From Oscillospiraceae bacterium (lineage in GTDB: Bacteria > Bacillota > Clostridia > Oscillospirales > Acutalibacteraceae), in NCBI GenBank assembly GCA_902788995.1, contig CADAMO010000001.1, positions 8,746 through 72,745 on the forward strand: a DNA stretch of 64,000 bases, given 5' to 3'. The notes below the pieces were generated by a model. That model saw only the letters and a list, made by a program, of their open reading frames with translations, was not told the DNA's origin and made no database searches. The position numbers and the translations under genes are program-made. Positions 42,173-62,928 of this stretch are shown here, piece by piece. Every line of letters begins with the position of its first letter. Position 1 is the first letter of the stretch.

Positions 42173-42323
42173 GGTAGCGCGGCACCTCAGTGCCGCTGTT
42201 TACTGAAGTATCATTCAGGAAACCGGAAGAATGAGGAAAAAACCGTATTTTCCGGGAGGCGTATATTGTTCAGGAGATAAAACAGTTGTTGACGTCAAGC
42301 GCGGCACTGAGGCGCCGCGATAC
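42173..42323 (+). repeat. REPIN-like doublet M1
   Basis: Left unit GGTAGCGCGGCACCTCAGTGCCGC. Right unit GCGGCACTGAGGCGCCGCGATAC (2 mismatches). AAACAGTTGTT lies 10 nt before the right unit. Confidence 0.85.
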
Positions 42324-42357
42324 GGAAAATCAACCGAAAAATCCTTCTGCCCCGCTG

Positions 42358-44142
42358 TCAACCGTTCCCGCCGTAGACCCAGTTGAGCCTTCCGTAGGGG
42401 GCGCTGTCGCCGCGGGTGTAGAAGGACAGAAGATTGCCGTCCTCATAGTTGTCCGCCCACTTGAAGGTGAAGGCGGCTTTTTTGTTGCCCGCCAAGCCCA
42501 GCGTGGCTTTCGGCACCCGCAGCATCAGCTTGTTGTCTTCAAATCGGATCTCCGCGCTGCCGACGGTTTCATAACCCGCGTCCGTGACGGCCTCCACGGC
42601 GGTTTTGCCGCCCATGGGGGCGGTGCGGTTGACGCAGAAGTCGTAGCCCGCCTTTTCGCCCTTCACGTTGAGAAACAGCGTCATCCACGCCTCGTCCGTG
42701 GCCGGTGAAAGGGGAGAAGCGGTCTCCACGTAGTAATACAGATACCGGCTGTCCTCCGCCACCTTGGCCCTGACGATGTCGTTCCGGCCGGTGTCGTCGG
42801 CGTAGTACAGGTCGCCGTAGCCGCGGCTGGCCCGGTCAAAGGTGTCGTTCCGGTAATCCCGGTAAACGGCCCTGACGGAGGGGTTCTCCCACTGGGCAAA
42901 GCTGCCGTTGACGTCGATGCTGACAAGGGGGCTCTCGGGCAGCACGGCGGCGCTGCGCTTAAATTTGGCGATGTACTGCACCATCTGCATATAGTAGTTG
43001 TCGCCGAGGACCCCGGCGGCGGGTTCCACGTCGCGGGAGTATTCGTCGGTGCAGTTGTCGCAGAAGCCCACCGGCTCGCTGTCCACGAACTGATAACGCT
43101 GGGCGATCCACTCGTTGAAGCCGGTGACGAAGATGATATCCGGGGCCAGCTTCAGGGCGTATTCCCATTGCTCCGCGAAGTTATAGCCGTACTTCAGTGC
43201 GTCGGGGGCGGTATCCTTGGCCCCGTTGTGCCAGCTTCTGCCGTGGTCTTCGCCGCCGTACCAGGCGGAGGAGCTGAACCGGATGGTCGCGCAGTGCTGG
43301 GCCACGGAGACGTTCATGATGCTCTTGTCCGCGGGGGAGTTCTTGTAATAGGCGTCGAAAGTGCCCAGCCGGCCGAACTCCATCCAGGGGAAGCCGTCGG
43401 TTTCCTTGTCGCTGTTGGGCCATTGGGTGGTCTTGATGCGGAAAAAGCGGCGCGCGTCTTCCCGCAGCTCCGGGTCGTCCTGCCAGCCGATGATCATGGG
43501 CTTGCCGTTCATCCGGTACCACAGCTCGTCCAGCCGGGGATATGTCGCCTTCAGCTCCGCGTTGTTGTACAGCCCGTCGTAGATGGCGTTGATCGTTTTC
43601 CCGGAGGCGGAGTTGGTGTAAAAGGCCAGCTGCGGCACCTTCCAGCCGTCCTCCAGATAGCCGTACCACACGTCGATCAGGTCTTTTGCCCGGTCGAGAT
43701 AGGAAAAACCGTTGGTGGCGTCGAAGACGATGAAATCCACACCGGCGTCCGTCAGCATCTGACAGTGACGAGAAATGACCCATCTGTCGCTCTGCAGATA
43801 ATACCCGAACAGCGGCTCGCCCCAGTGGTGGAACGCGCCGTATCCGCCGCCTCCGGCCGCCTCCCAGCGCTCGGCGGAGAGGTAGGCCTGCGGGTCCTTT
43901 TTCGTGATCTCCGTGATATCATAAGGGCCGTCGGTTCCGTGCTCGCCCGCCCAAAGGAAATAAAAGACGCCCACCTGTTTTTCGCTTTTTCCGGCGGTGA
44001 TCACCTTTCTTCCCAGTTCATCCACGGCGGCCAGCGAGCCGTTTTCTTTGACTTCCTGTTGACGGATGGGGGCGTTGGCCCCGAAGCAGATGTTCCAGAT
44101 CATAGTGAGAATCAGTCCTATCTTGACAATCAGTTGATACAT
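42358..44142 (-). CDS. Secreted protein, putative glycoside hydrolase-like (family not assigned)
   Basis: N-terminal signal/anchor, FYFLWAGEHG..HHWGEPLFGYY..DFIVFDATNG TIM-barrel-like motifs, and a C-terminal beta-sandwich-like region. The call is tentative. Confidence 0.6.
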   Translation of the reverse strand: MYQLIVKIGLILTMIWNICFGANAPIRQQEVKENGSLAAVDELGRKVITAGKSEKQVGVFYFLWAGEHGTDGPYDITEITKKDPQAYLSAERWEAAGGGGYGAFHHWGEPLFGYYLQSDRWVISRHCQMLTDAGVDFIVFDATNGFSYLDRAKDLIDVWYGYLEDGWKVPQLAFYTNSASGKTINAIYDGLYNNAELKATYPRLDELWYRMNGKPMIIGWQDDPELREDARRFFRIKTTQWPNSDKETDGFPWMEFGRLGTFDAYYKNSPADKSIMNVSVAQHCATIRFSSSAWYGGEDHGRSWHNGAKDTAPDALKYGYNFAEQWEYALKLAPDIIFVTGFNEWIAQRYQFVDSEPVGFCDNCTDEYSRDVEPAAGVLGDNYYMQMVQYIAKFKRSAAVLPESPLVSIDVNGSFAQWENPSVRAVYRDYRNDTFDRASRGYGDLYYADDTGRNDIVRAKVAEDSRYLYYYVETASPLSPATDEAWMTLFLNVKGEKAGYDFCVNRTAPMGGKTAVEAVTDAGYETVGSAEIRFEDNKLMLRVPKATLGLAGNKKAAFTFKWADNYEDGNLLSFYTRGDSAPYGRLNWVYGGNG

Positions 44143-44270
44143 AACGTCGCCTCCGTTATTTTGATAAAAAAACAGGCGCGAGGCCGGAGATGTGGCGTGC
44201 GAGAACCGATCCGTAAAAACACGGGATATCGTTTCTCACCCCTCAGCTCTCAAACCTCACGCCTGGCGCG

Positions 44271-45173
44271 TTACTGCTGAATGCCGCCGCCGGGCTGTCC
44301 ACCGCCCATGAGCGTCTGCAGCAGACCGGGGCGCTTCTGCTTTTTCGGCTTGTACTTCGGCGGATGCTCCAGACGGAGCTGGCTGGATTTGCTCTTGGCC
44401 AGCCGCTCGTTGGCCGCCAGCACCGGCTCCAGCATGGTATCCGTCAGATAGGGCATGATCTGCTGAATGATGTGGGGATCGTTTTTGATCTCGCCGAGAA
44501 TCGTCACGGCGATCAGGCTCTGCACCTCGTTGGTGCCGTCTTCATAGACCTCGCCCAGAATGTTGAAGACCTTCTTCATCTGCTGGGGATTGTTGCTGCG
44601 GATCACGTCCATGATATACCGGTTGGCGTGGTTCACGAAGAAATCCTCGCACAGAAACTCGCCGTAGGTGTTGATGTTTTCCTTGATATCGTCTTTCAGC
44701 GCGGGGAACATGCCGGCGAATTTGGTGGCCAGCGTAATGGGGTCATAGGCCATCGCGCCGCTTCTCGCCGCCGCCTTTGAGACGGTGGAGGGGGCCTTCA
44801 TCTTCGTGTTTACCTTTTTCTTGACGAGGTAGGTATCCGTCATGTATTCGGAGATCTCATTGACAAGGCTCTTCAGATCCTTCTCGCCGTATTCCTCCAG
44901 CACGAAGAGGTAGGTGGAATCAAGATTGAAGGCGGAATCGTCCGTCAGGTCAATGTCGTTGGCGCCGAAAAGCAGGTGGATCCTGTCCTTGTTGAACACG
45001 AAACGGGCTCTGCCCTTGTCGCTTTTGAAGTCGATCACGGACTGGCTTTCCCGCTCGTATACCGGGCTGCTTCCCTTGGGGGCGTCCGCTTTGCGTTCGG
45101 CGATAAAGCCGCAGCTCGTCATGGCGGGCTCGATCCCCGCGTAGAGCATCTCCATCATCTGTTGCTGTGTCAT
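44271..45173 (-). CDS. Hypothetical cytoplasmic protein
   Basis: 300-aa ORF with coherent composition and a basic Gly/Pro-rich tail. No family recognised. Confidence 0.65.
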   Translation of the reverse strand: MTQQQMMEMLYAGIEPAMTSCGFIAERKADAPKGSSPVYERESQSVIDFKSDKGRARFVFNKDRIHLLFGANDIDLTDDSAFNLDSTYLFVLEEYGEKDLKSLVNEISEYMTDTYLVKKKVNTKMKAPSTVSKAAARSGAMAYDPITLATKFAGMFPALKDDIKENINTYGEFLCEDFFVNHANRYIMDVIRSNNPQQMKKVFNILGEVYEDGTNEVQSLIAVTILGEIKNDPHIIQQIMPYLTDTMLEPVLAANERLAKSKSSQLRLEHPPKYKPKKQKRPGLLQTLMGGGQPGGGIQQ

Positions 45174-45219
45174 TTTTTGTCTCCTTTTTTTGAAGGGCGC
45201 GATCGGATTTCGCTGACCC

Positions 45220-45364
45220 GGTAGCGCGGCACCTCAGTGCCGCTATTTGCCAATGAAATATTGTTGAATTAGAAAATCAGAGGAAGCATCGTTTTACAGG
45301 ATGCTGTTTTTTTTGATCTGAAACAGTTGTTGTTGCATGAGCGGCACTGAGGTGCCGCGCTACC
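45220..45364 (+). repeat. REPIN-like doublet M2
   Basis: Perfect 24-nt inverted units at both ends. Interior holds a plus-strand terminator-like hairpin AGCATC/GATGCT plus T8 (45285-45314). AAACAGTTGTT lies 9 nt before the right unit. Ends 4 nt from the kinase stop. Confidence 0.9.
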
Positions 45365-45368
45365 GGAA

Positions 45369-46955
45369 TCAACCGTTCAGCGCCGCGAAGTTCTTTTTAT
45401 TGACCTTATACAGCTCCTTGAACACGGCGTACTGCCTGTCATAGACGGCCTTGTTGGCGGCGTTGGGGGTGTAGGTCTTCACCACGGGGATCAGCTTCTT
45501 GGCGTCCTTGAAGCCGTCGATCAGGCCCAGGCCTACTGCGATGGTGACGGCCGCGCCCACCGCGCCCACGTTCTGGGGTTTGTCAACGGTCTCCACCTTC
45601 TTGCCCAGCACGTCGCTGAGGATCTGGCAGGTGGCGTAAGAGAGCGCGCCGCCGCCCACAAAGCGGATCGTCTCGGAGGACTTGACCTTCTTGTCCTCCG
45701 CCTCCATGAACCAGCGCAGGTGATAGCACACGCCCTCGATGACGGCGCGGATCATGTCGCTCTTGCCCGTCTCCAGCGACAGGTTGAAGAAAATGCCTCT
45801 GGCGTTGGGGTCCTCAAAGGGACAGCGGTTGCCGTGGAGCCACGGGGTGAAGATCACGCCGTTGGAACCGGCGGGCACCTTGTCGATGATCTCCGTCATA
45901 TAGTCGTAAAGGCTGGTGTATTCGGTCTCAAAGCTGGCGGCCACGTCCTCTTTCTTGAGGTAGATGTTGATTTCGTCCAGCGCCAGGTGGTCCTTGACCC
46001 ACTCCAGGCACTTGCCGGCGGTTTCCAGCTCGCCGAAGTAGTTGAATTTGCCCTGATCCGCGCCGACTACCGCGGCGATCATGGCGGAAGCGTCCACGAT
46101 GCTCTTTTCCACCACCGTGGAGACCCAGCCGGAGGTGCCGCAGTAGATGTGGGTGTCGCCGGGCGCTACCGCGCCGGCGCCCACGCCGATCAGCGAAGCG
46201 TCGCCGCCGCCGCCGAATACGGCGGTGCCGACCTTCAGGCCCAACTCCTTTGCCTGGGCTTCCCGCAGGCCGCCCACCACGTCGGTGGATCTCACCAGCT
46301 CCGGCATGTGGGCCGGGTTCACGCCCAGCGTTTTGCACAGGCTTTCGGACCAGCAGTCGTGCTTCAGGTCGTACAGCAGCGCGCCGAAGGCGGAATCCCG
46401 CGTCATCACGCAGCGGCCGGTCATGCGGGCGATCAGGTATTCCTTCACGTCCAGCCATTTATAGATCTTTTTGTAGTTTTCGGGTTCGTGGTTTTTGACC
46501 CAGTTGTATTTCCAGACCGGGTCCTTGACGGAGGCCGCCACCGCGCCGGTGATGGCCAGTGATTTCAGCAGGATCGGAACGCTGGCGCCCGCCACCTGAA
46601 TGCCGTGGGCGATGCCCTTTTTCAGCTCCTCCCGGGCCCGCTGATCCATATAGCTGAAGGCGCGGCGGATGGCGTTGCCCTCCTTGTCCACCAGCACAAG
46701 GCCCTGCATCTGCGAGCAGAAGGAGATGCCCTCGATCCGGTCGGGGGAGACGCCCGCGTCGGCGACGGCCTTCTTTGACGTGTCGCAGACGGCTTCCCAC
46801 CATTCGTCGGGGTCCTGCTCCGCGCCGCCGTCCGGGAAGACGTAGAGCGGATAGCCCTCGGAGGCGCTGCCCAGCAGCTTGATGGTATCCGAAATCTCAA
46901 ACACACAGGTCTTGACGCCCGTGGTGCCGATATCAAATGTGATGGCGTACTTCAT
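45369..46955 (-). CDS. FGGY family carbohydrate kinase (xylulokinase-like)
   Basis: YAITFDIGTTGVKT N-terminus and C-terminal FVGGGA.. motif. FGGY length. Confidence 0.88.
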   Translation of the reverse strand: MKYAITFDIGTTGVKTCVFEISDTIKLLGSASEGYPLYVFPDGGAEQDPDEWWEAVCDTSKKAVADAGVSPDRIEGISFCSQMQGLVLVDKEGNAIRRAFSYMDQRAREELKKGIAHGIQVAGASVPILLKSLAITGAVAASVKDPVWKYNWVKNHEPENYKKIYKWLDVKEYLIARMTGRCVMTRDSAFGALLYDLKHDCWSESLCKTLGVNPAHMPELVRSTDVVGGLREAQAKELGLKVGTAVFGGGGDASLIGVGAGAVAPGDTHIYCGTSGWVSTVVEKSIVDASAMIAAVVGADQGKFNYFGELETAGKCLEWVKDHLALDEINIYLKKEDVAASFETEYTSLYDYMTEIIDKVPAGSNGVIFTPWLHGNRCPFEDPNARGIFFNLSLETGKSDMIRAVIEGVCYHLRWFMEAEDKKVKSSETIRFVGGGALSYATCQILSDVLGKKVETVDKPQNVGAVGAAVTIAVGLGLIDGFKDAKKLIPVVKTYTPNAANKAVYDRQYAVFKELYKVNKKNFAALNG

Positions 46956-46976
46956 TTTCTTCTCCTTTTTTATGAT

Positions 46977-47131
46977 GGTAGCGCGGCACCTCAGTGCCGC
47001 TGACGATAGATGTAACTGCTATACAGGTTATCGTTTGGAACCGGCAGCTTTAAACTCACGGTCTGCCAGAGGGGGACAATGCGTAAAACAGATTGTTATT
47101 GCCAGAAGCGGCACTGAGGTGCCCCGCTACC
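46977..47131 (+). repeat. REPIN-like doublet M3
   Basis: Left unit perfect. Right unit GCGGCACTGAGGTGCCCCGCTACC (1 mismatch). AAACAGATTGTT lies 10 nt before the right unit. Ends 5 nt from the recR stop. Confidence 0.9.
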
Positions 47132-47136
47132 GGGGA

Positions 47137-47733
47137 TCAAAGCGCTTGCCGTCCCTGAATCGCCCGTGACAGCGTGACGGAATCCGCATATTGCAGATCG
47201 CTGCCCACCGGCAGCCCGTAGGCCAGCCTTGTCACCTTCACACCCAGGGGCTTTAACATCTTGGAGATATACATGGCGGTCAGTTCGCCCTCAACGTTGC
47301 TGCCCGTGGCCATGATGACCTCTTCCACGCCCCCTTCGTTGACGCGGGCCAGCAGCTCTTTCAGGGTGATATCCTCGGGGCCTACCTCGTCCAAGGGCGA
47401 AATCACCCCGTGCAGCACGTGGTAGACGCCGCCGTACTCCTTGGTGTTCTCAATGGCCATCAGGGATTCCACGTTTTCCACCACGCAGATCAGGCCGTGC
47501 TTGCGATTGACGTTTTTGCAGACGGGGCACAGCTCTTCGTCTGTCAGGTTGCAGCAGACGGGGCAGCGGTGGATCTTTTCCCCCGCCTCGCGGATGGTCT
47601 CCGCCAGCTCCTCCACCTCGTTCTTGGGCAGTTCCAGCACGTAGAAGGCGAGCCGCATGGCGGTCTTCGCCCCGATGCCGGGCATGCGGCGGAACTGCTC
47701 CGTCAGCTTTTCAAATGAAACGGCGCTGTCCAT
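47137..47733 (-). CDS. recR: Recombination protein RecR
   Basis: LPGIGxKTA-type helix-hairpin-helix (MPGIGAKTAMRLAF), C4 zinc finger CPVCCNLTDEELCPVCKN, Toprim region. Confidence 0.93.
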   Translation of the reverse strand: MDSAVSFEKLTEQFRRMPGIGAKTAMRLAFYVLELPKNEVEELAETIREAGEKIHRCPVCCNLTDEELCPVCKNVNRKHGLICVVENVESLMAIENTKEYGGVYHVLHGVISPLDEVGPEDITLKELLARVNEGGVEEVIMATGSNVEGELTAMYISKMLKPLGVKVTRLAYGLPVGSDLQYADSVTLSRAIQGRQAL

Positions 47734-47736
47734 AAA

Positions 47737-48081
47737 TCAAAGGCCCAGCCCGCCGAGCCCGGGGATATTGAGACCGCCCGTCAGGCCGTTCATTCTGGTC
47801 TCCATGGTGTCGTTGGCCTTGCGGATGGCTTCGTTGAGGGAGGCGATCAGCAGGTCTTCCAGCATCTCCACGTCCTCGGGGTCCACCACTTCGGGCTGGA
47901 TTTTGATCGCTTTCACCTCGTGCTTGCCGGTGACGGTCACTTCCACCGCGCCGCCGCCGGAGCTGGCGGAAAACTCGGTGTTTTCCACTTCCTCCTGCAC
48001 GTTGCTCATCTCTTCCTGCATCTTCTGGATCTTCTGCATCATGTCGTTGCGGGAGGGCTGGTTGGGGATTCTTGCTTTCAT
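47737..48081 (-). CDS. ybaB: Nucleoid-associated protein YbaB/EbfC
   Basis: MQKIQKMQEEM..GGGAVEVTVTGKHEV..I.PEVVDPEDVEMLEDL, in dnaX-ybaB-recR synteny. Confidence 0.92.
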   Translation of the reverse strand: MKARIPNQPSRNDMMQKIQKMQEEMSNVQEEVENTEFSASSGGGAVEVTVTGKHEVKAIKIQPEVVDPEDVEMLEDLLIASLNEAIRKANDTMETRMNGLTGGLNIPGLGGLGL

Positions 48082-48096
48082 ATCGGTTACTTCCTT

Positions 48097-50109
48097 TTAC
48101 TCTACTTTGATATTGTATTTCCTGCCGAGCGTTTCCAGCGCGGCTTCACTGACGTATTTGGAGAGATAGGCGGGGTTGATAAAGGTCTTGATCTTGTTTT
48201 CCCCCAGCCGGATGAGGATGGTGTTGCCCGCGATGGAGGCGGTGGAATCCGTCAGCTGGCCGATCAGCGGGGCGAACCGCTTTTCCGTGCCGAGGATGAT
48301 CTGCATCCACGTGCGGCCGTCGATGGGCGTCGCCGTGGGCTCATCCGTCAGCACCTGCGTCTGCGGGGCGGCGGAGGGTCCGCCTGCCGCATCGAAGGGG
48401 AGCGGTACCGTGGCGTCCCCGGCCTGCGGGCTTCCGGCGTGTTCCTGCATAAAGGCGTCAAAGTCAAATCCGTCGTCCGGGGGGGGCGGCGGGTTGCTGC
48501 CGGCGGAGGACCCGCTTCCGGCGTGTTCGCTCATGAACGCGTCAAAATCAAAGGGCTCGTCGTCCGTCTCTTCCGTTCCGGCGGCGGCGAATCTGTCCGC
48601 AAAGCTGCCGGAGGAGGGGCGGTCAGCGGCGAAACCGGAGAAGGAGGGTCGCTGTTCACGGCTGTCGCGTTTTGGCGTCGGAACGGTCGCTTCCCCGAAA
48701 GGCTCGTCCGGCGGCGGCGCGTCGTCAAAGGGCGGTGCGTCGTCAAAGGGGGGCGCCTCGTCGAAGGGCGGTATATCGTCAAAGGGGGGCGCGTCGTCGG
48801 AAAAAAGCGGAATCGTCGCGTCGTTTTCGGAGAGTTCCGCCGGTGCGGCGACGGGGGCGGGGGCCGGCTTTGGCGGGGCGGCCTGCTGCCGCGGCGAGGG
48901 CGTTTCAACGGGCGTTTGAGCAACGGGCGTTTCGGCGGGGGAGAAGGCGACCGCGCCGCTTTTCAGCCGGGCGATCTCTTTTTCCAGCGCGGCCACCCTT
49001 GCGGTCAGCGCGGTGACGGAAACGTCGGTCTCCGGGCGGCACAGGCGGATCAGCGCCATTTCCGCCTCAATGCGGCGGTTCTGGGTGCGGCGGATGGCCT
49101 CCGACGCGGCGGCCAGCACGCCCAGCGCGTACAGCACGTATTCCTGGGTAAACGCTGCGGCGGAGGTTTTGATCCGCTCCAGCTCTTCGGCGGTGCAGAC
49201 GATCAGGTTCTCCGGGTGGGCCACCGTCTTCACGATCAGAAAACTGCGGAACCGGTCGATCAGCTCCACGCAGAGGCGCTCCGTATCGCAGGAGGCCTTG
49301 TGCAGCTCGTCTAAAATGGAAAGGCACCGGGCCGTGTCCTTGGCGGCGACGGCGTCCATCAGGTCGTAAATATATTCGCGGTTCATCAGACCCGCGGAGG
49401 AGGAGACCACGTCCACGGTCACGTCGTTTGCCACGGAAAGGCAGCGGTCCAGCAGCGAGAGCGCGTCCCGCATACCGCCGTCCGCAATGCGGGCGATCAG
49501 CACCGCCGCGTCGTAATCCAGCGACGCGTTTTCCGCCTTGGCGATCTCCACCAGCCGGTCCGCGATGCAGGCGGGCTCGATCCGGCGGAAGTCAAACCGC
49601 TGGCAGCGGGAGAGGATCGTGGAGGGGAGCTTGTGCACCTCGGTGGTGGCCAGAATGAACTTCACGTGCTCCGGCGGCTCTTCCAGCGTTTTCAGCAGCG
49701 CGTTGAAGGCCGCAATGGAGAGCATGTGGACTTCGTCGATGATATAGACCCGGTAGGTGGCCTGGGAGGGGGTGAAGTTGACCTCGTCCCGCAGCAGGCG
49801 GATATCGTCCACACCGTTGTTGCTGGCGGCGTCGATCTCCACGATATCCAGCACGGAGCCGTTGTCGATGCCGCGGCAGATCTCGCACTCGTTGCAGGGG
49901 TCGCCGTTCACCGGGTGCAGGCAGTTGACCGCCTTGGCGAATATTTTCGCGCAGGTGGTTTTGCCCGTCCCCCGCGAACCCGTGAACAGGTAGGCGTGGG
50001 CCAGGCGGTTTTCCCGGATCTGATAGGAGAGTGTCTTGGTGACCTGGGGCTGGCCGATCACGTCGGCAAACACCTGCGGCCGCCATTTACGGTAGAGGAC
50101 GCGGTACAA
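48097..50109 (-). CDS. dnaX: DNA polymerase III subunit gamma/tau
   Basis: TTG start. LYRKWRPQVF, GSRGTGKTT (Walker A), zinc module CLHPVNGDPCNECEICRGI. Long low-complexity linker with internal repeats. Confidence 0.93.
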   Translation of the reverse strand: MYRVLYRKWRPQVFADVIGQPQVTKTLSYQIRENRLAHAYLFTGSRGTGKTTCAKIFAKAVNCLHPVNGDPCNECEICRGIDNGSVLDIVEIDAASNNGVDDIRLLRDEVNFTPSQATYRVYIIDEVHMLSIAAFNALLKTLEEPPEHVKFILATTEVHKLPSTILSRCQRFDFRRIEPACIADRLVEIAKAENASLDYDAAVLIARIADGGMRDALSLLDRCLSVANDVTVDVVSSSAGLMNREYIYDLMDAVAAKDTARCLSILDELHKASCDTERLCVELIDRFRSFLIVKTVAHPENLIVCTAEELERIKTSAAAFTQEYVLYALGVLAAASEAIRRTQNRRIEAEMALIRLCRPETDVSVTALTARVAALEKEIARLKSGAVAFSPAETPVAQTPVETPSPRQQAAPPKPAPAPVAAPAELSENDATIPLFSDDAPPFDDIPPFDEAPPFDDAPPFDDAPPPDEPFGEATVPTPKRDSREQRPSFSGFAADRPSSGSFADRFAAAGTEETDDEPFDFDAFMSEHAGSGSSAGSNPPPPPDDGFDFDAFMQEHAGSPQAGDATVPLPFDAAGGPSAAPQTQVLTDEPTATPIDGRTWMQIILGTEKRFAPLIGQLTDSTASIAGNTILIRLGENKIKTFINPAYLSKYVSEAALETLGRKYNIKVE

Positions 50110-50148
50110 GGCGGGACAGTCCTTTCTGTGGGGAGGAAGTTTTTTCCT

Positions 50149-50183
50149 GAAAGTTGAAAGTTGAAAGATAAAAGTTGAAAGTC
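50149..50183. repeat. Solo heptad array I4
   Basis: GAAAGTT GAAAGTT GAAAGAT AAAAGTT GAAAGTC, 40 nt upstream of the dnaX start. No convincing complementary arm. Confidence 0.9.
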
Positions 50184-50247
50184 GGAAAAACGCTGCGCGT
50201 TTTTGATTTTATAAAGTGATGTGTTTCACTTTTATAAATAAAATTTT

Positions 50248-50374
50248 GCCTCTGTCACACGGCGTGCAGGCGGACTGTGTCGCACGGGCTGACCGCTTAA
50301 TGCTGCTCGGTTCCCCGCCTGACATGGTTCGCGGCGCTCCGTCGCACAGGACCAACACGCCGCATGACAGAAGC
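50248..50374 (-). ncRNA. ffs: Signal recognition particle RNA (core helix 5/8)
   Basis: The minus strand reads ..GUCAGGCGGGGAACCGAGCAGC.., matching the conserved domain IV GUCAGG..GGAA..AGCAGC. It is closed by a 19-bp helix GCUUCUGUCAUGCGGCGUG / CACGCCGUGUGACAGAGGC (with G-U pairs). It sits in the canonical position upstream of dnaX. Confidence 0.8.
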
Positions 50375-50403
50375 AAAATTCAAGTCTTTTTCACTTGGTA
50401 ATC

Positions 50404-50432
50404 ATTATACTACTTTTCCTGTGGTTTGGCAA
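50404..50432 (-). promoter_or_regulatory. Sigma-A promoter of the SRP RNA gene
   Basis: Minus strand TTGCCA (50432-27), 17-nt spacer, TATAAT (50409-04). Confidence 0.65.
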
Positions 50433-52426: not shown

Positions 52427-52460
52427 AATGCGGAATTCGGAATGAGGAATTCGGAATTAT
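52427..52460. repeat. Heptad array, left arm of cassette I5
   Basis: AATGCGG AATTCGG AATGAGG AATTCGG AATTAT. Contains the stop codon (52457-59) of the enclosed gene. Confidence 0.92.
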
Positions 52461-52804
52461 TTAGGTTGCGTTTTTGTGATAGAAGTCAATAATTTGATAA
52501 GCTCTTCGCAATTATAATACAGTGGTTCAAACGTTGATTTGTCAATGAAATCGCTTTCATACAGGAGTTCAAGCCAATAGGCAGTTTCATCTGCTTCTTT
52601 TAGTGCAATATTCATTTTTGAATAAAAGTCAGGTTTGCTTTGCCCTCTTTGCGCTTCACGGATATTTGCGCCGATGCTTGTGCCGCTTCGCAAAATCTGC
52701 TTTGATAATACGAATTCGTGTTCAACGCATAAATATCGGTATAAACGGATAATCTGAAGGGCAAACGCTTTGCTTTTATCTCTGACTGCATTATTGTAGA
52801 TCAT
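52457..52804 (-). CDS. Four-helix-bundle protein (23S rRNA intervening-sequence protein / Avd family)
   Basis: KSKAFALQIIRLYRYL..LSKQILRSGTSIGANIREAQRGQSKPDFYSKMNIALKEADETAYWLELL, the hallmark of this family. 21 G+C in the 60-nt line at 52501. Confidence 0.88.
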   Translation of the reverse strand: MIYNNAVRDKSKAFALQIIRLYRYLCVEHEFVLSKQILRSGTSIGANIREAQRGQSKPDFYSKMNIALKEADETAYWLELLYESDFIDKSTFEPLYYNCEELIKLLTSITKTQPK

Positions 52805-52823
52805 TTCAGACCCTTCCCTCTCA

Positions 52824-52857
52824 ATAATTCCGCATTCCGCATTCCGAATTCCGCATT
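52824..52857. repeat. Heptad array, right arm of cassette I5
   Basis: Reverse complement reads AATGCGG AATTCGG AATGCGG AATGCGG AATTAT, 32/34 identical to the left arm. Confidence 0.92.
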
Positions 52858-52865
52858 AAAAAGGC

Positions 52866-54464: not shown

Positions 54465-54471
54465 GATAGTG

Positions 54472-56824: not shown

Positions 56825-57010
56825 GGCCGCGCTCACTCCTTTTTTCGTTTTTGCCTCTTTTACTGTATAAAGGAAAAGTGAAAAACAGGTGACGTCCCGG
56901 CGCGGGCATGATCGCCGTCCGCCGCCGGGGGAAAACAAGAATATATCTGTTTTTATTTTCCCACATTCCCCCGGGCTTTGTCAATACCCTTTGCCGGGAA
57001 AATGGGATTT

Positions 57011-57122
57011 GTCGGGGCAAAACCGCCGAAGCGCCGCCAGTGGCGGATGAAGCGAGGCGGTTTTGGTGAGCAAACACAGAGCGATGCGAGTGCTCCAAGC
57101 GAAGCTGCGCGACAATGTTTGC
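57011..57122. repeat. Repeat R2, copy 2
   Basis: GTCGGGGCAAAACCGCCGAAGCGCCGCC..GGTTTTGGTGAGCAAACACAGAGCGATGCG. Contains the 9-bp stem AAAACCGCC/GGCGGTTTT and the 7-bp stem GCAAACA/TGTTTGC. Confidence 0.5.
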
Positions 57123-57138
57123 GAGGGGCAATATCATC

Positions 57139-57289
57139 GTAGCGCGGCACCTCAGTGCCGCTCTTGACAAATGTAGCTTTTGAAACGGATTTTGGAATTA
57201 TCTGCCGTTTTCTCTTACATAATGAGCGTTAAGGCAACTATTTATAATAGTTGTTTGTGCTTATAGCGGCACTGAGGTGCCGCGCTACC
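57139..57289 (+). repeat. REPIN-like doublet M4
   Basis: GTAGCGCGGCACCTCAGTGCCGC .. AATAGTTGTT-N10-GCGGCACTGAGGTGCCGCGCTACC. Confidence 0.9.
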
Positions 57290-57434
57290 GCATGGGGCAA
57301 CATCTCGACAACCCTCAATTTGCCTCCTTCTGTCGTTCAATCAACTTTCTTTAAATAATATTCATACTTCTTTCATAAACCGTTCGTTTTTTCGATGCAA
57401 AATAGAATCAATATTCAAAAAGGGGAAAGAAACA

Positions 57435-58031
57435 ATGGACGTATTACCGAGAGATGAGGCCGTCGCGCTTCTGAAAACCTATAACAAGGACCTGTTCCAT
57501 CTGCGCCACGCCTACACGGTGGAGGGCGTCATGCGCTGGTACGCCAATGAACTGGGCTACGGCGCTGACGCCGATTTCTGGGCGCAGGCGGGGCTGCTGC
57601 ACGATATCGACTTTGAATTATACCCGGAGCAGCACTGCATCAAAGCGCCGGAGCTGCTCAAAGAGGGCGGGGCTTCCGACGAGCTGATCCACGCGGTCTG
57701 CTCCCACGGTTACGGCATCACCGTGGACGTCGTGCCGGAGCACGAGATGGAAAAGGTGCTTTTCGCCGCGGATGAGCTCACCGGGCTGATCGGCGCGGCG
57801 GCGCTGATGCGGCCCTCCAAAAGCACCAAGGATATGGAGGTTTCCAGCCTGAAAAAGAAATTCAAGGATAAAAAGTTCGCGGCGGGCTGCTCCCGGGATG
57901 TCATCACCCGGGGCGCGGAGCTGCTGGGCTGGGAGCTGCCGGAGCTGATGGAAAAGACCATCCTCGCCATGCGCGATTGCGAGGACGCGGTGAACGAGGC
58001 CATGCAGCGGGAGGAAAAGGCCGATGTATGA
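57435..58031 (+). CDS. HD domain phosphohydrolase
   Basis: LRHAYTVEGV..GLLHDIDFE..AVCSHGYG motifs of small HD/HDIG proteins. Confidence 0.8.
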   Translation: MDVLPRDEAVALLKTYNKDLFHLRHAYTVEGVMRWYANELGYGADADFWAQAGLLHDIDFELYPEQHCIKAPELLKEGGASDELIHAVCSHGYGITVDVVPEHEMEKVLFAADELTGLIGAAALMRPSKSTKDMEVSSLKKKFKDKKFAAGCSRDVITRGAELLGWELPELMEKTILAMRDCEDAVNEAMQREEKADV

Positions 58032-59418
58032 GGGATATGAGCGCGACAAACGGCTGGTGGCCTGTGTGCCGTCGGAGCGCCAGCTGCGCCTGCAGCAGAT
58101 GGAGTTCTACGCTTTCGCCCACATCACGGTGAACACCTTTACCGATCAGGAATGGGGCGACGGCACAGAGGCGGAAGCCGTCTTCAACCCGAAAAAACTG
58201 GACGCGGATCAGTGGGTCGCGGCGATCAAATCCGCCGGCATGACCGGGCTGATCGTCACCGCCAAGCACCACGACGGCTTTTGCCTGTGGCCATCCGCCT
58301 ATACGGAGCACAGCGTCAAGAATTCCCCCTTCCGGGGCGGAAAAGGCGACGTGGTGAAGGAGGCGGCGGAGGCCTGCAGGCGGGGCGGTATCAGATTCGG
58401 CGTGTACCTCTCCCCCTGGGACCGCAACTGCCCCCTTTACGGGCAGGGCAAGCCCTATGACGATTATTTCTGCGCCCAGATGACGGAGCTGCTGACGAAC
58501 TACGGCGATCTGTTCTGCGTGTGGTTCGACGGTGCCTGCGGAGAGGGGCCCAACGGCAAAAAGCAGGTCTACGACTGGCAGCGTTATTACGCGGTTGTGC
58601 GGCAGTACCAGCCGGAGGCCTGCATCTCCATCTGCGGGCCGGACGTGCGCTGGTGCGGAAACGAGGCCGGCGTCACCCGCCAGAGCGAGTGGAGCGTGGT
58701 GCCGGAGGGGCTGCGGCTGGCGGCGGACGGAGACGATCCCGCAACGGTGCTGTCCGAGACGGACCCGGAGCTGGGCAGCCGCGAGCTGCTGGAACGGGCC
58801 CCCGCTTTGATGTGGAAACCGGCGGAGACCGACGTTTCCATCCGGCCCGGTTGGTTCTGGCACAAAAAGGAGAACCGGCAGGTGAAGACGGTGAAGGAGC
58901 TGACCGACCTGTACCTGCGGACCGTGGGCGGCAACAGCACGCTGCTGCTGAATATCCCGCCGGACGCGGACGGCCTGTTTTCGCCGACGGACGTGCAGCG
59001 GCTGGCGCTGCTGGGCGATACGATCCGCGCCGTCTTTGCCGAAAATCTGGCGAAGGACGCGGTCTTTACCGCCTCCGCCGACGACGGCGTCCACACGGCG
59101 GAAAACCTGCGGGAGGATTCCTGCGATTCGTACTTCAAAACGAATGACGGCGACAATACCGTCACCGTCAGCGTGAAAATGCCGGAGATGCGCAAGCTGC
59201 ACATCCTGACGCTGAAGGAGGACCTCCGTTTCAGCCAGCGCATCGAGCGCTTCGCGGTGGAATACCGCTGCGGCAAGGGCTGGAAACGCATCTATGAGGG
59301 CACCACGGTGGGCTACAAAAAATACTGCCGCTTCCGTCCCGTCACCACCGACGAGATCCGCATTCTCATCTTGGATTCCCGCGTCTGCCCCGTGCTCTCC
59401 CACGCGGCGGTGTATTGA
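58024..59418 (+). CDS. GH29 alpha-L-fucosidase with C-terminal F5/8 type C-like domain
   Basis: ..ITVNTFTDQEWGDG..AGMTGLIVTAKHHDGFCLWPS..GVYLSPWDRN..WFDGA.. 8-nt overlap with the HD gene. Confidence 0.85.
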   Translation: MYEGYERDKRLVACVPSERQLRLQQMEFYAFAHITVNTFTDQEWGDGTEAEAVFNPKKLDADQWVAAIKSAGMTGLIVTAKHHDGFCLWPSAYTEHSVKNSPFRGGKGDVVKEAAEACRRGGIRFGVYLSPWDRNCPLYGQGKPYDDYFCAQMTELLTNYGDLFCVWFDGACGEGPNGKKQVYDWQRYYAVVRQYQPEACISICGPDVRWCGNEAGVTRQSEWSVVPEGLRLAADGDDPATVLSETDPELGSRELLERAPALMWKPAETDVSIRPGWFWHKKENRQVKTVKELTDLYLRTVGGNSTLLLNIPPDADGLFSPTDVQRLALLGDTIRAVFAENLAKDAVFTASADDGVHTAENLREDSCDSYFKTNDGDNTVTVSVKMPEMRKLHILTLKEDLRFSQRIERFAVEYRCGKGWKRIYEGTTVGYKKYCRFRPVTTDEIRILILDSRVCPVLSHAAVY

Positions 59419-59439
59419 TAGATCAAATGACGGCAACGT

Positions 59440-59474
59440 AAAAAGATCCCGGATTCACCCTCCGGGATCTTTTT
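59440..59474. terminator. Bidirectional intrinsic terminator
   Basis: AAAAAGATCCCGGA-TTCACCC-TCCGGGATCTTTTT between convergent genes. Confidence 0.8.
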
Positions 59475-59509
59475 GGATAAACGGATAGATGCAGCGGCCG
59501 GCGACTTTC

Positions 59510-60652
59510 TCACAGCGCCGTCGCTTTGCTGATGAAATAGCCCGGCAGCGCCACAAAGGCGAAAAAGGCGAGGCTGACGAGGGTGAACACCTTGATGAAT
59601 TTCATCCCGTTTTTCGGGTACTCCCGCACGTAGATGCGGTAGTTGATGACCGAGGCCAGCGAGCCGATCAGCGTACACAGGCCCGCCGAATCCAGCCCGT
59701 AGAGCAGCGCGCCGGTGTTCTGCGAGAAGGGGTACAGCACGATGGCGGCCGGCACGTTGGAGATCACCTGGCTGATCAGGATGCTGACGAGGTATTCCCT
59801 GCCCGCCACCGCCTTCCGCAAAAAGGCGGCGGTGTGTTCGTTGGCCGCCACGGAGGAGGAGAACACGAAAAAGCACAAAAAGGTCAGCAGCAGCACGTAG
59901 TCCGTTTTCAGCAGCAGCCGTCTGTCGGCGATCAGCACCGCCAGCAGCACGATCCCCACCGCAACGTACCACCAGGGCGTGCGGCTGACGATGGTGGCGA
60001 TCACCAGCGCGAACAGGCACAGCAGCACGGCCTTTTTGCCTTTGCCGCCCTCGCTCCCCTCCGTGAAGGTCTTTGGCGCAAGGGCCGTTTTCTCCCGCAG
60101 GTTCCGGCGGAACAGGAACAGCACGAAGGCCGCCAGCAGCGCGCCGGATAGGATCCAGAGGGGGAACATATAGGCCATGAAGCGCCAGGGGGAAACCCCG
60201 CTGCGCCCGAAGATGAACAGGTTCTGCGGGCTGCCGAAGGGGGTGAGCAGGGAACCCCGCACCGCCGCGATGTTTTCCATGGCCAGCAGCGGCAGAATGA
60301 ACGATTCCCGCCCCGCCGCGCGGAACAGCAGGATCGTCAGCGGCACGAAGATGATGAGCGACACGTCGTTGGTGACGAACATGGAGCTGAAAAAGACGGC
60401 GAACACCAAAAACAGCCCCAGCCCCGTCAGCGTGCCGATCTTACCCGCCAGCCGCAGCACCGGCGCGAAGACGTTCTCCTGCTTGAAGCCCTCCAGCACC
60501 GTCAGCATCATGAACAGCGTGCCCAGCGTCCGCCAGTCGATCTCCCTGAGCAGCGCCGCCGAAGGGGGCGTGAGGAACAGCGACAGCAGCGCCGCCGCCA
60601 CGGAGACGGTGAGCATGGGTTCTTTTTTCAGCCATTGTCCGATTCGTTTCAT
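59510..60652 (-). CDS. ArsB/NhaD-superfamily anion permease (citrate transporter-like)
   Basis: ATG 60652 with GGAGAA upstream. About 10 TM segments. The family call is tentative. Confidence 0.7.
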   Translation of the reverse strand: MKRIGQWLKKEPMLTVSVAAALLSLFLTPPSAALLREIDWRTLGTLFMMLTVLEGFKQENVFAPVLRLAGKIGTLTGLGLFLVFAVFFSSMFVTNDVSLIIFVPLTILLFRAAGRESFILPLLAMENIAAVRGSLLTPFGSPQNLFIFGRSGVSPWRFMAYMFPLWILSGALLAAFVLFLFRRNLREKTALAPKTFTEGSEGGKGKKAVLLCLFALVIATIVSRTPWWYVAVGIVLLAVLIADRRLLLKTDYVLLLTFLCFFVFSSSVAANEHTAAFLRKAVAGREYLVSILISQVISNVPAAIVLYPFSQNTGALLYGLDSAGLCTLIGSLASVINYRIYVREYPKNGMKFIKVFTLVSLAFFAFVALPGYFISKATAL

Positions 60653-60742
60653 ATCGTTCTCCAAGTCATACGCCGCAAGGCGTCGGTCTGACACGATTCT
60701 ACCACACCCGCTCACAAAAATCCACAAAAAAATCGTCACGAC

Positions 60743-60772
60743 TGGACAAAAACCGCCCGCCCGTGATATAAT
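60743..60772 (+). promoter_or_regulatory. Extended -10 promoter of the two-component operon
   Basis: TGGACA (60743-48), 18-nt spacer ending in TGA, TATAAT (60767-72). Confidence 0.55.
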
Positions 60773-60867
60773 AGAAAGAAATCAACGGGCATCGTTGGGG
60801 GCTCCGCCCTCCGCCGCACGGCGGAAGCGGTTTTCCCGGCGGCAATTTCCCGCAACGGAGGCAAAGC

Positions 60868-61551
60868 ATGGCAGAGACCGTATTGATCGTGGACGACGAA
60901 AAAGAGATCGCGGAGCTGGTGGAGCTGTACCTGAAAAACGAGGGGTTCCGCGTGTGCAAGGCGTACAGCGCGGCGCAGGCGATGGAGATCGTCGCCGGAG
61001 AGGACGTGTCGCTGGCCCTGCTGGACGTGATGCTGCCCGATACGGACGGTTTTACTCTCTGCCGCAAGCTGCGGGAGACCCATCTGTTCCCCATCATCAT
61101 GCTGACCGCCCGCACTGCCGACCTGGACAAGATCAACGGGCTGGCGCTGGGGGCGGACGACTATATCACCAAGCCCTTCAATCCGTTGGAGGTGGTCGCC
61201 CGGGTCAAGACCCAGCTGCGGCGCTACACCCAGTACAACACGGCGGAACCGTCGGTCTACGACAAGGACGGGTTATATGTCTGCGGGCAGACCCACGTGT
61301 GCGAGCTGTACGGCCAAAGTGTGCCGCTGACGCCCATCGAGTTCGGCATCCTGTGGTATCTGTGTGAACGCCGTGGCCAGGTGGTGCCCTCGGAGGAACT
61401 GTTTGAGGCGGTGTGGGGCGAGAAATACCTGGATAACAACAACACGGTCATGGCGCACATCGCCCGTTTGCGGGAAAAGCTGAACGAGCCGCCCCGCAGG
61501 CCGAAATTCATCAAAACCGTGTGGGGAGTGGGGTACAAGATCGATGCGTAA
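60868..61551 (+). CDS. OmpR-family response regulator (VanR-like)
   Basis: Receiver domain (VLIVDDE..LLDVMLPDTDG..TA) and winged-helix C-terminus (..FIKTVWGVGYKI). Confidence 0.9.
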   Translation: MAETVLIVDDEKEIAELVELYLKNEGFRVCKAYSAAQAMEIVAGEDVSLALLDVMLPDTDGFTLCRKLRETHLFPIIMLTARTADLDKINGLALGADDYITKPFNPLEVVARVKTQLRRYTQYNTAEPSVYDKDGLYVCGQTHVCELYGQSVPLTPIEFGILWYLCERRGQVVPSEELFEAVWGEKYLDNNNTVMAHIARLREKLNEPPRRPKFIKTVWGVGYKIDA

Positions 61552-62680
61552 GCACTGGAAATATCTGCGGTTCCTCGTGATTCCCGCGGCGATCCTGCTG
61601 GCGGGCGGCGTCATTTATTTTATCACCGACACAGTTTCCGACGGAGTGTTGGCGGACTGGCTTTCCCGGCGGTTCGCCTATGAAACGACGGAGCAGGACG
61701 GCGACGTGGTGCGCATCGTCCAGTGGATCAGCTGGGACGCCGTGAAAGCCTATATCACCAACGCGCTTGTTGTGCTGGCGCTGCTCGGCTCGTGGATCGG
61801 CATCGTTGTGCACGACGTGGTCCGGCAGCGCACCCGCCGCAAACACGCCCGGGAGCTGGCGGCCCATTTGCAGCGCTATCTTTTAGAAGAAGATCCGCTG
61901 CCCGCGGAGCTGCCGCCGGACGACGCGGAGGTTTTCTCCAAAATTGCCGACGCACGGCTGAAAATGGACCGGGAAAAGGCGCTGCTGCGGGAGGAATCCC
62001 AGAAGAAAAACGATCTGGTCACCTACCTGGCCCACGACCTGAAAACGCCCCTTACCAGTGTGATCGGCTACCTGACCCTGCTGCGGGACGCGCCGGATAT
62101 GCCCGCCGCCCAGCGGGCGAAATACACCGGCGTGGCGCTGAAAAAAGCCCAGCGGCTGGAGGAGCTGGCGGCGGAGATGTTCGAGATCACCCGCTTCAAC
62201 CTCTCTTCCGTCGAGCTGTCGCCGGAGGACGTGAACCTCTCCCGGATGCTGGAACAGCTTGCCTCTGAATTCCTGCCGCTGCTGGCGGAAAAGAACCTGC
62301 GGATCGAGACGGACATCGCCCCGGAGGTCCGCTGCTTCTGCGACGTGGAAAAGACCGAGCGCATCATTGACAACCTGCTGCGCAACGCGGTCAATTACAG
62401 CTATCCGGATTCCGCCATCACCCTGACCCTGACGCGGGAAGGGGAAACCGTGAAGATCGTGACGGAAAACCGCTGCCGGACCATCCCGCCGGAAAAGCTG
62501 AAACGGATCTTCGAGCGGTTCTACCGGCTGGACGCAGCCCGGGGGAGCGAAACCGGCGGCAGCGGCCTTGGCCTTGCCATCGCCCGGCAGTTGACGGAAG
62601 CCCAGGGCGGCACGATCGCCGCCGAGAGCGAAAACGGGACCGTCCGCTTCACCGTCACCCTGCCCGTCAGAAAATCGTAA
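61544..62680 (+). CDS. Sensor histidine kinase (VanS-like)
   Basis: Two N-terminal TM segments, H-box LVTYLAHDLKTPLTS, N/G boxes (..NLLRNAVNYS.., GGSGLGLAIAR). 8-nt overlap with the regulator gene. Confidence 0.9.
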   Translation: MRKHWKYLRFLVIPAAILLAGGVIYFITDTVSDGVLADWLSRRFAYETTEQDGDVVRIVQWISWDAVKAYITNALVVLALLGSWIGIVVHDVVRQRTRRKHARELAAHLQRYLLEEDPLPAELPPDDAEVFSKIADARLKMDREKALLREESQKKNDLVTYLAHDLKTPLTSVIGYLTLLRDAPDMPAAQRAKYTGVALKKAQRLEELAAEMFEITRFNLSSVELSPEDVNLSRMLEQLASEFLPLLAEKNLRIETDIAPEVRCFCDVEKTERIIDNLLRNAVNYSYPDSAITLTLTREGETVKIVTENRCRTIPPEKLKRIFERFYRLDAARGSETGGSGLGLAIARQLTEAQGGTIAAESENGTVRFTVTLPVRKS

Positions 62681-62777
62681 GAATTTCGTCAGAAAAACGT
62701 CAGTTCCCCTTGATAAAAACCGAAAACAAACCTTCCCCCGTTGTGCTACCATATAGGCATAGCGGGGGACGCTTTTT

Positions 62778-62928
62778 GTAGCGCGGCACCTCAGTGCCGC
62801 TATTCGCCGGAGTTGCATTTCGGTAATCTGAAAGATAGGGATCATCGTTGTATTATCAGCGAAACCCTTGTTTTCAGTTCACAAAACAGTTGTTTGCGTT
62901 CCGAGCGGCACTGAGGTGCCGCGCTACC
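62778..62928 (+). repeat. REPIN-like doublet M5
   Basis: GTAGCGCGGCACCTCAGTGCCGC .. AAACAGTTGTT-N10-GCGGCACTGAGGTGCCGCGCTACC. Confidence 0.9.

Follow-up and report, generated by a model that had tools for sequence, protein, structure and literature searches.

Probable REPIN-like GTAG-REP doublets and a linked RAYT-kind transposase gene in uncultured rumen Clostridia

Background

What are the short inverted doublets that recur between the genes of an uncultured rumen bacterium, and which enzyme, if any, do they belong to? The DNA in question is a stretch of 64,000 nucleotides from an Oscillospiraceae bacterium (assembly GCA_902788995.1, contig CADAMO010000001.1, positions 8,746 to 72,745 of the forward strand), called the window in the following. 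An initial annotation, made without database searches, had described five doublets there, each a pair of inverted units, and had proposed repetitive extragenic palindromic (REP) sequences in the arrangement known as REP doublets forming hairpins (REPINs), the repeats of REP-associated tyrosine transposases (RAYTs). Our answer, to which we give a probability of roughly 80%, is that the doublets are head-to-head, REPIN-like GTAG-REP elements of a REP-RAYT system in uncultured rumen Clostridia. They are non-autonomous elements of 143-162 bp whose GTAG ends face outward. Their cognate enzyme, as judged from sequence, appears to be a RAYT-kind HUH/Y1 transposase of only 158-176 aa, whose gene, probably single-copy, sits between recX and rimO in close relatives with the same doublets on both sides.

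Work on REP/REPIN-RAYT systems has dealt almost exclusively with Proteobacteria. Surveys of GTAG-REPs (PMC3733652, PMC2817692) cover Proteobacteria, Cyanobacteria, Chloroflexi and the Planctomycetes-Verrucomicrobia-Chlamydiae (PVC) group, with Firmicutes not mentioned, and RAYT group 1, a group without clear REP association, has been reported in Clostridia (PMC5581495). A literature search on RAYT in rumen bacteria or Clostridia gave nothing relevant. The system described here is thus of a known kind, in a phylum where REP/REPIN-RAYT was undocumented. With a transposase gene physically linked to its repeats, it provides a clear Clostridia example of a mostly proteobacterial system.

REP units in the window and in related genomes

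The window was searched with the pattern GTAGCGCGGCACYTCAGTGCCGC, allowing up to 3 mismatches, and the chance level was taken from shuffled sequences. The search gave 11 matches where 0.00 were expected. Ten of them pair up as five inverted doublets, at the sites given in the initial annotation, and the eleventh is a solo unit; this unit, and a sixth doublet built from other stem classes, had been missing from the earlier inventory (Table 1). The unit is 23 nt long and consists of a GTAGC head, a 7-bp GC stem and a CTCA loop (GCGGCAC-CTCA-GTGCCGC), so that the proposed layout of a GTAG followed by a hairpin holds throughout. The terminal inverted repeats of the doublets usually cover 26 nt and reach up to 27 nt (CGGTAGC...GCTACCG). 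The right unit of doublet 1 has 2 mismatches, one of which leads to a G.T wobble, and one unit of doublet 3 (47108-47130) has 1 mismatch. All copies in the window are intergenic, and Rfam gave no family for the doublets nor for the intergenic region at 56-57.4 kb.

A genome scan with one genome per species yielded at least 90 stretches around REP sites, 617 kb in total (individual loci carry L numbers below). The genome-wide copy count that had been suggested came to at least 184 units and at least 65 doublets in 90 loci, nearly all from six rumen Clostridia metagenome-assembled genomes (MAGs; RGIG2737, SRR8387714_bin.3, SRR12081292_bin.8, RUI026, RUG12588 and RUG14140), with doublets accounting for 130 of the 184 units listed. 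The six MAGs together hold at least 160 units. The two best-covered MAGs hold at least 54-67 units each in the ~200 kb sampled. Another 74 stretches, mostly from rumen assemblies, came from metagenome contigs scanned with the DNA pattern used for the window. There are 297 non-redundant units in total, 243 of which are identical to the consensus. The repeats break MAG assemblies, many loci ending at a unit, and could be used as lineage markers in rumen metagenomes.

The tetranucleotide itself stands out: 10.6% of all GTAG occurrences precede a perfect hairpin, against ~1.4% for most control tetramers. Above the other controls are GGTA (5.9%) and TAGG (2.4%), the excess of GGTA not being independent because it overlaps GTAG. 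At least six stem classes share the GTAGC head, the others besides GCGGCAC being ACGGCGC, ACGGAGC, ACGCTGC, ACGCAGC and GCGGCTG. Units occur solo, in tandem arrays with a period of 41-44 nt, as head-to-head doublets and nested, in which case ACGGCGC doublets lie inside GCGGCAC doublets, directly inward of two subterminal motifs (A and B, described below).

A RAYT-type gene flanked by the same units

The initial annotation had let the REP/REPIN identity depend on an associated Y1/HUH gene, and a RAYT-like gene flanked by exact units was found on three contigs (L097, L165 and L182). Y1 genes were searched by phmmer with E. coli RayT and IS200 TnpA, by two RAYT hidden Markov models (HMMs), by a regular expression of the form HUH..YxxNP and by a family-specific HMM. 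The E. coli RayT query is identical in sequence to PDB 4ER8, and both RAYT HMMs detect IS200 TnpA, which served as control. A homologue search starting from E. coli RayT returned only close enterobacterial relatives.

On L097, the open reading frame (ORF) 270-746 encodes a protein of 158 aa (P0272) that is matched by a RAYT HMM with an E value of 2.7e-6. Its best NCBIfam model is NF047646 REP_Tyr_transpos (E 3.3e-13; 49.8 bits, under the equivalog cutoff of 80), its score against Pfam Y1_Tnp is 22.5 bits (slightly under the cutoff of 23), and the IS200 model NF033573 reaches only 17 bits. The best sequence match in PDB is E. coli TnpA-REP (4ER8). This structure was also the top Foldseek match (TM-score 0.62) to an AlphaFold2 model built with 46 homologues (predicted local distance difference test, pLDDT, of 89), and ranks 2-30 were all IS200/IS605 TnpA structures. 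In a 46-sequence alignment that includes E. coli RayT, six residues are invariant (P79, H81, W118, Q119, Y139 and P144) and two more almost invariant (H83 and N143). P0272 has the HUH motif (H-V-H), the WQ motif, which as WQ..F is common to P0272 and E. coli RayT, and a catalytic Tyr within RYIDENP; these features are also conserved in E. coli RayT.

Upstream of the gene on L097 lie exact GCGGCAC units at 119-141 and 222-244; downstream follow a doublet (759-908), a unit (994-1016) and rimO. The same order, recA-recX-doublet-RAYT-doublet-rimO, was found on L165 (a 47.6-kb contig) and L182 (a 26.5-kb contig), with proteins 90% and at least 90% identical, and L165 has another, dispersed doublet 4 kb from the RAYT locus. 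The units flanking the gene are exact in all three lineages, and as these loci are 79-91% identical in DNA, the recX-RAYT-rimO arrangement is inherited. In RGIG2737 the locus L041 is orthologous to the recA-recX side as far as its end, which falls in the upstream doublet. Counted over contigs and sampled stretches, the RAYT protein clusters occur on 1-8 contigs each, and the recX-RAYT-rimO synteny is the same in the three lineages.

Paralogues of P0272 are found with hairpins of other classes. The gene of P0282 (62% identity), located between aroA and tyrA, is enclosed by two head-to-head units of GTAGCACGGCGCcttGCGCCGT (ACGGCGC/CTT), the left unit being followed by TAAACAAC. P0275 (67% identity) goes with GCCGTGC hairpins and P0303 (53% identity) with ACGGCGG hairpins, and P0312 (50% identity) lies inside a pair of ACGGCGC/ACCC hairpins, in an element of 848 bp at the 3' end of tatD, ~190 nt of which are duplicated. 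A specific enzyme-substrate pair predicts that transposase lineage and stem class match, and this is what was observed: by sequence comparison, the lineage varies with the REP class among paralogues that are 50-67% identical. Several RAYT/REP specificity pairs in related genomes should be useful for learning how Y1 enzymes read hairpins.

Another Y1 gene, L109 94-564, was rejected as partner of the doublets. It is a canonical IS200 gene (Pfam Y1_Tnp, 138.6 bits) with unrelated AT-rich hairpins. It lies ~45 nt from a GCGGCAC doublet, an insertion that is probably unrelated.

The linkage also bears on classical miniature inverted-repeat transposable elements (MITEs), in this case deletion derivatives of a DDE-transposase insertion sequence (IS) with 26-bp terminal inverted repeats (CGGTAGCGCGGCAC... 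ends). Perfect terminal inverted repeats of 24-27 bp and a length of ~150 bp agree with a MITE, and the CG present at both ends in ~75% of the copies could be a 2-bp target duplication. However, the only gene bracketed by these ends is the Y1/HUH gene, each end is itself a GTAG-headed hairpin, and there are solo and tandem units as well. Direct repeats of 3 bp or more are lacking (repeats of 3-9 nt at the ends of 0-1 of 59 copies), and the CG flanks are equally readable as an extension of the inverted repeat because CG is self-complementary. The 617 kb of loci contain no multicopy protein and no IS with these ends; IS elements as source of the doublets were rejected on this ground, and we consider a MITE origin very improbable.

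Interiors, subfamilies and orientation

Of 60 doublets gathered from related genomes and brought into a common orientation with the help of their subterminal motifs, 51 align over the full length. The interiors, which had been taken as unrelated to each other, are in fact homologous, the alignment showing two subfamilies and two different conserved ends. The B-end motif is T..TGACGAATGTTAC and the A-end motif is AAAAAGTTGTTTGTG.CA, which includes the 11-mer reported earlier as the only shared part. The length of the doublets is narrowly distributed (143-162 nt, with spacers of 97-110 nt), and a 110-nt doublet of the ACGCAGC class (L004) shares both motifs. Interiors from separate loci of one MAG are 88-95% identical. 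Such paralogues, the alignable interiors and the nesting of doublets agree with the doublet as the replicating unit, yet solo units and tandem arrays are common.

All five doublets of the window do have the same orientation, as had been stated (chance ~1/16). This is not a rule, because contigs with several copies (L070, L085, JAFRRP010000009 and JAFRRP010000036) show mixed orientations. An orientation rule relative to genes was rejected, the orientation to neighbouring genes being mixed. The suspected bias relative to replication was likewise rejected; orientations are mixed within contigs, and the GC skew of the window is flat and uninformative.

Orthologous sites and host-encoded alternatives

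Doublet 2 has a counterpart at the same site in RGIG2737 (L084), where the flanking genes are ~88%, the interior ~72% and the units 100% identical. At a site shared by L022 and L067, the interiors are ~50% and the units 100% identical. Doublet 3 was present in 8 of 8 independent rumen assemblies with an identical RecR protein, and doublet 2 in all three that reach both its ends, each in one orientation across those assemblies and with few single-nucleotide polymorphisms. Elsewhere the sites differ: L024 has a doublet where the window (~28980) has none, and L008 and L014 carry a doublet that L019 and L049 lack, the neighbouring DNA differing too. At the doublet 5 junction in the MAG CAMVNL01 (L021), with the left flank 97% identical, the doublet is in the opposite orientation and contains a nested doublet of the ACGGCGC class. 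Insertion polymorphism and fixation, which had been posed as opposite outcomes, were thus both encountered, some sites being fixed across species and others present or absent, inverted or with nested insertions; this mixed picture does not overturn the REPIN assignment. Copies are gained, lost and rearranged, and the units that are retained are held invariant.

Long flank duplications were seen at two loci. Compared with window 28880-29100, L024 (1969-2325) has a duplicated flank of ~45-60 nt including an 18-aa ORF (MDNERFL..), and in L180 (2300-3420) the RAYT element is surrounded by a duplication of ~190 nt from the 3' end of tatD; these duplications are unlike a short target duplication. 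In the related genomes, the intergenic regions between well-conserved genes are hypervariable mosaics.

Conserved inverted repeats around variable interiors, copies 22-25 nt ahead of start codons and the opposite orientation at one orthologous junction would all be in keeping with invertons, where a recombinase flips a promoter-bearing interior between inverted repeats. The opposite copy in L021 is not a flip, however: its interior differs, and a nested insertion is present. In the recR-FGGY region a single orientation was found for doublets 2 and 3 in the assemblies given above, most copies are downstream of genes, and no recombinase gene is adjacent. Promoters inside the doublets were rejected, since a scan of doublets 1-3 gave no promoter-like site. 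We therefore give invertons very little credence.

Read as RNA, either strand of a doublet folds to one hairpin with a closing stem of 24-26 bp and a predicted minimum free energy (MFE) of -63 to -84 kcal/mol, the predicted MFE of a single unit being -13.6 kcal/mol. RNAalifold on the 51 aligned copies gave no conserved interior structure and the invariant terminal stem alone, without covariation signal either way. Very stable predicted hairpins located 5-35 nt past stop codons, with units 100% conserved at orthologous sites where interiors drift and with copies fixed in 8 assemblies, would suit immobile structural elements of the host that are under selection (bidirectional terminators, mRNA 3' stabilisers or RNase III sites, or protein-binding palindromes), the RAYT being incidental. 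Against this, three lineages have identical units on both sides of the RAYT gene, and other RAYT lineages have other stem classes there. Nested insertions, tandem arrays, sites occupied in one genome and not in another, and paralogous interiors up to 95% identical in one genome are also at variance with it. No U-tract follows the hairpins, only one of the 10 units in the five doublets being flagged as terminator-like (T-rich tail), and the orientation to neighbouring genes is unconstrained. A purely structural explanation is thus unlikely; it is compatible with a secondary host role and not with the origin of the elements.

Gene context

Three copies are close to stop codons of minus-strand genes, as the earlier reading had it: the right end of doublet 1 is 34 nt from the stop of a 594-aa ORF, that of doublet 2 is 5 nt from the stop of an FGGY kinase gene, and that of doublet 3 is 6 nt from the stop of recR. 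Doublet 1 lies between convergent genes, adjoined by a terminator hairpin (42106-42137). On the minus strand, doublet 2 is 47 nt ahead of the start of a DUF7674 gene and doublet 3 is 22 nt ahead of the start codon of the FGGY kinase gene; because of its position 6 nt after the recR stop and 22 nt before this start, doublet 3 must be co-transcribed. The GTAG of the solo unit contributes its TAG as stop codon to a short-chain dehydrogenase gene (34955-35683). Doublet 4 is nested in an outer palindrome, GGGATTTGTCGGGG ... CTCGACAACCCTC, which has further hairpins too. The positions of the features are collected in Table 1.

Table 1. Positions of REP elements and heptamer arrays in the window
Feature	Extent	Unit to unit	Strand	Remarks
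Doublet 1 (REPIN-like)	42172..42325	42174-42323	+	left unit 42174-42196, right inverted unit 42301-42323; B-end motif left, A-end motif right
Doublet 2 (REPIN-like)	45219..45365	45221-45363	+	perfect 27-nt terminal inverted repeats
Doublet 3 (REPIN-like)	46976..47132	46978-47130	+	inverted unit pair
Doublet 4 (REPIN-like)	57137..57290	57139-57288	+	between divergent genes
Doublet 5 (REPIN-like)	62776..62929	62778-62927	+	downstream of histidine kinase gene
Solo REP unit GTAGCGCGGCACTTCAGTGCCGC	35680..35702		+	TTCA loop variant; array of 7-nt repeats comes next
Sixth doublet, other stem classes	23388..23631		+	left GCAGCACGGCGCATTGCGCCGT 23388-23409; right inverted GTAGCACGCAGCCTCTGCTGCGT 23609-23631, minus strand; B-end motif beside right unit
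Heptamer arrays	28094-28130/28247-28278, 35706-35737/35864-35895, 37388-37425, 50148-50182, 52427-52458/52827-52857			

Three elements directly past the stops of consecutive genes in the same orientation recall attC sites of the integron kind, the FGGY kinase and DUF7674 genes being among the gene cassettes that they would delimit. These genes are housekeeping (dnaX-ybaB-recR) and syntenic in relatives, however, and copies are also found between convergent and between divergent genes. No R'/R'' core sites (RYYYAAC/GTTRRRY) could be read in the sequence, the ends being GTAGC/GCTAC, and no integrase was seen in the families searched. Of all the explanations considered we find this one the hardest to credit.

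Outer palindromes enclose many doublets, as in the flanks of L076, L027, L065 and L071 and in the window at 57004-57020 and ~57300-57320. Examples are TTCATCACGGATAATTGTGGGATACAGCAAT...ATTGCTGTATCCCACAA..CGTGATGAA and GGGATTTGTCGGGG...CCTCGACAAACCCC.

Weight of the evidence and proposed mechanism

Each of the rival explanations, namely a structural host element, a DDE MITE, an inverton and an attC site, is contradicted by a tested feature. Several observations weigh against the REP-RAYT assignment as well. In agreement with the initial annotation, no RAYT-like gene was found in the window by phmmer, HMMs or the motif regular expression, and the six-frame ORFs of the 617 kb around the 90 MAG REP sites gave no Y1 gene either. 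The RAYT contigs belong to related rumen lineages, and the gene was seen outside the window's own genome only. The scores of P0272 are under both the NCBIfam and the Pfam cutoff. Copies that are fixed at the same site across species and in 8 assemblies fit selection as well as they fit mobility. No clean pair of a filled and an empty site was found, the sites without a doublet having their adjoining intergenic DNA replaced or duplicated. Changes on both sides, seen at 6 of the 7 stem pairs among 14 class representatives, speak for the assignment, yet the stem pairing of 100% in this count is partly by construction because the representatives were picked for having a hairpin. Finally, stem mismatches on the GTAG strand are G.T in 11 cases and C.A in 3, an asymmetry that gives a weak hint of the GTAG strand as the folding strand and that amounts to only 11 against 3.

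The mechanism of the REP-RAYT system is inferred here from the biochemistry of IS200/IS608 and E. coli TnpA-REP. The RAYT would bind the REP hairpin GTAGCGCGGCACCTCAGTGCCGC on the single-stranded GTAG strand, probably at replication forks; the predicted single-stranded substrate of P0272 is GGTAGCGCGGCACCTCAGTGCCGCT. It would then cleave beside the hairpin and rejoin the strands without target duplication, and doublets and units would in this way spread through intergenic DNA. Inserted copies would share the transcripts of adjacent genes (for three of the five a stop codon is no more than 35 nt away, and for one a start codon is at 22 nt). In the transcript a copy would fold to a long hairpin with a perfect stem of 24-26 bp, which may act as 3'-end stabiliser, RNase III site or terminator. 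Either a host function or the need to stay recognisable by the RAYT would explain the invariant units and drifting interiors at orthologous sites, and the comparison of ends with interiors can be used to tell selection for mobility apart from selection for host function.

Beyond this, the data may tentatively be read as a long-lived, vertically inherited REPIN-RAYT partnership, with paralogues that have their own stem classes, nested doublets, hairpins co-opted by the host and transfer across phyla; we regard this wider picture as possible, though rather doubtful. Within it, the 23-nt hairpins that are unchanged where interiors diverge by 28-50% would likely have a role as mRNA-end or RNase III structures. 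Four soil Acidobacteriota MAGs (L015, L026, L042 and L074) have GTAGCGCGGCACTTCAGTGCCGCG units, the same 23-nt hairpin with a TTCA loop, and a compensated stem variant, GCGGAGC, was also found in soil Acidobacteriota. The Acidobacteriota stretches, each up to 8 kb, gave no Y1 gene. If the partnership is real, the same hairpin in these soil bacteria would point to transfer of the system between phyla.

Comparison with known systems

The REPs and bacterial interspersed mosaic elements (BIMEs) of E. coli with their RayT (TnpA-REP, YafM; 4ER8) share with the rumen system the GTAG head, a GC-rich imperfect palindrome, a high intergenic copy number and the occurrence as solo units, as inverted pairs and in clusters together with other motifs. 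RayT is a single-copy HUH/Y1 protein flanked by REPs; the rumen protein, probably single-copy as well, is likewise flanked by REPs and has a similar fold and the same catalytic residues. The sequence identity of the two enzymes is only ~18-22%, however, and the rumen gene resides in a Clostridia host at the recX-rimO locus. With 23 nt, a tetraloop and a 7-bp stem free of mismatches, the rumen REP is also the shorter one, and its doublets have long spacers with asymmetric subterminal motifs.

In Pseudomonas fluorescens (Bertels and Rainey 2011; PMC3116915), two inverted REPs likewise form a hairpin-forming unit. Several RAYT paralogues each have their own REP class there, and REPINs are retained at orthologous sites, both as in the rumen genomes; the P. 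fluorescens RAYT is a single-copy gene passed on vertically, which may hold for the rumen gene too. The hairpin-forming REP pair of P. fluorescens replicates as a whole, as the rumen doublets may do. The rumen doublets are longer and have interiors far more diverged than their ends.

The GTAG-REP families (Di Nocera et al. 2013, PMC3733652; Nunvar et al. 2010, PMC2817692), for example GGTAGCGCCGGGCCATGCCCGGCG of S. maltophilia, have the same GGTAGCGC head, a GC-rich stem and a position downstream of ORFs. They form head-to-head dimers with spacers of 20-100 bp that may vary in sequence while the length is kept, and dimers nested in outer palindromes are found as well. Solo, tandem, dimer and nested arrangements of GTAG-REPs and BIMEs are known from Proteobacteria and a few other phyla (PMC3733652, PMC2817692). 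The rumen hairpin differs in that it was found identical in Acidobacteriota MAGs too.

Like IS200/IS605 elements (IS608, ISDra2), the rumen system combines a Y1 HUH enzyme with subterminal hairpins, which in the rumen case would also be recognised on a single strand; both lack target duplication and have asymmetric left and right ends. Canonical IS200 is multicopy and autonomous, whereas the rumen RAYT gene is probably single-copy and lies at a conserved locus. A likeness in function only is seen with the Correia/NEMIS elements of Neisseria and the enterobacterial repetitive intergenic consensus (ERIC) MITEs, which are intergenic, ~100-150 bp long and have ends that fold into long RNA hairpins in co-transcribed mRNAs. 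Their hairpins are RNase III targets or stabilisers, and by analogy the rumen doublets may have a role at the RNA level. Correia/NEMIS and ERIC differ from the rumen doublets by target duplications and DDE-type origins.

Heptamer arrays and other intergenic modules

Imperfect arrays of 7-nt repeats in 3-5 copies (AGATGAG, GGAAGTC, AGGCAAT, TGAAAGT and AATTCGG) were found in the window (Table 1), in L014, L016, L031, L044 and L069, and in the Acidobacteriota locus L015. They are intergenic, beside hairpins, and are often paired in inverted orientation with 100-350 nt of core between them. Each locus has its own heptamer sequence, and the period of 7 nt is constant; the Acidobacteriota locus has the same heptamer layout around the same REP hairpin.

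A conserved core, CCTGCGGCCGGCRTTTTATAATGGGTAWGGGCGAARGCCCWTCCG, with a TATAAT box and a hairpin and with heptamer arrays on either side, occurs in two species (window 28131-28246; L069 5290-5450). A two-hairpin module, GGGTCTCC..GGAGACC TCTGCC..GGCAGA, lies in the interior of the sixth doublet and recurs in ACGGCGC-class doublets (window 23506-23568; L021 interior). Rfam at gathering thresholds gave no match for the CCTGCGGCCGGCRTTTTATAATGGGTAWGGGCGAARGCCCWTCCG core or the two-hairpin module.

On the minus strand at 52457-52804 lies a gene of low GC content for a 23S rRNA intervening-sequence protein (PF05635, E 3e-30). It is bracketed (52427-52857) by a 38-nt inverted repeat of heptamer units, 92% complementary, and the region looks like an inserted cassette.

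The first part of the window (1-24000) has a GC content of 0.48-0.53 against ~0.59 elsewhere, repeated glycosyltransferase-like segments and no REP unit before 23388. Together, the low GC content, the glycosyltransferase-like repeats and the REP-free stretch fit an acquired polysaccharide locus.

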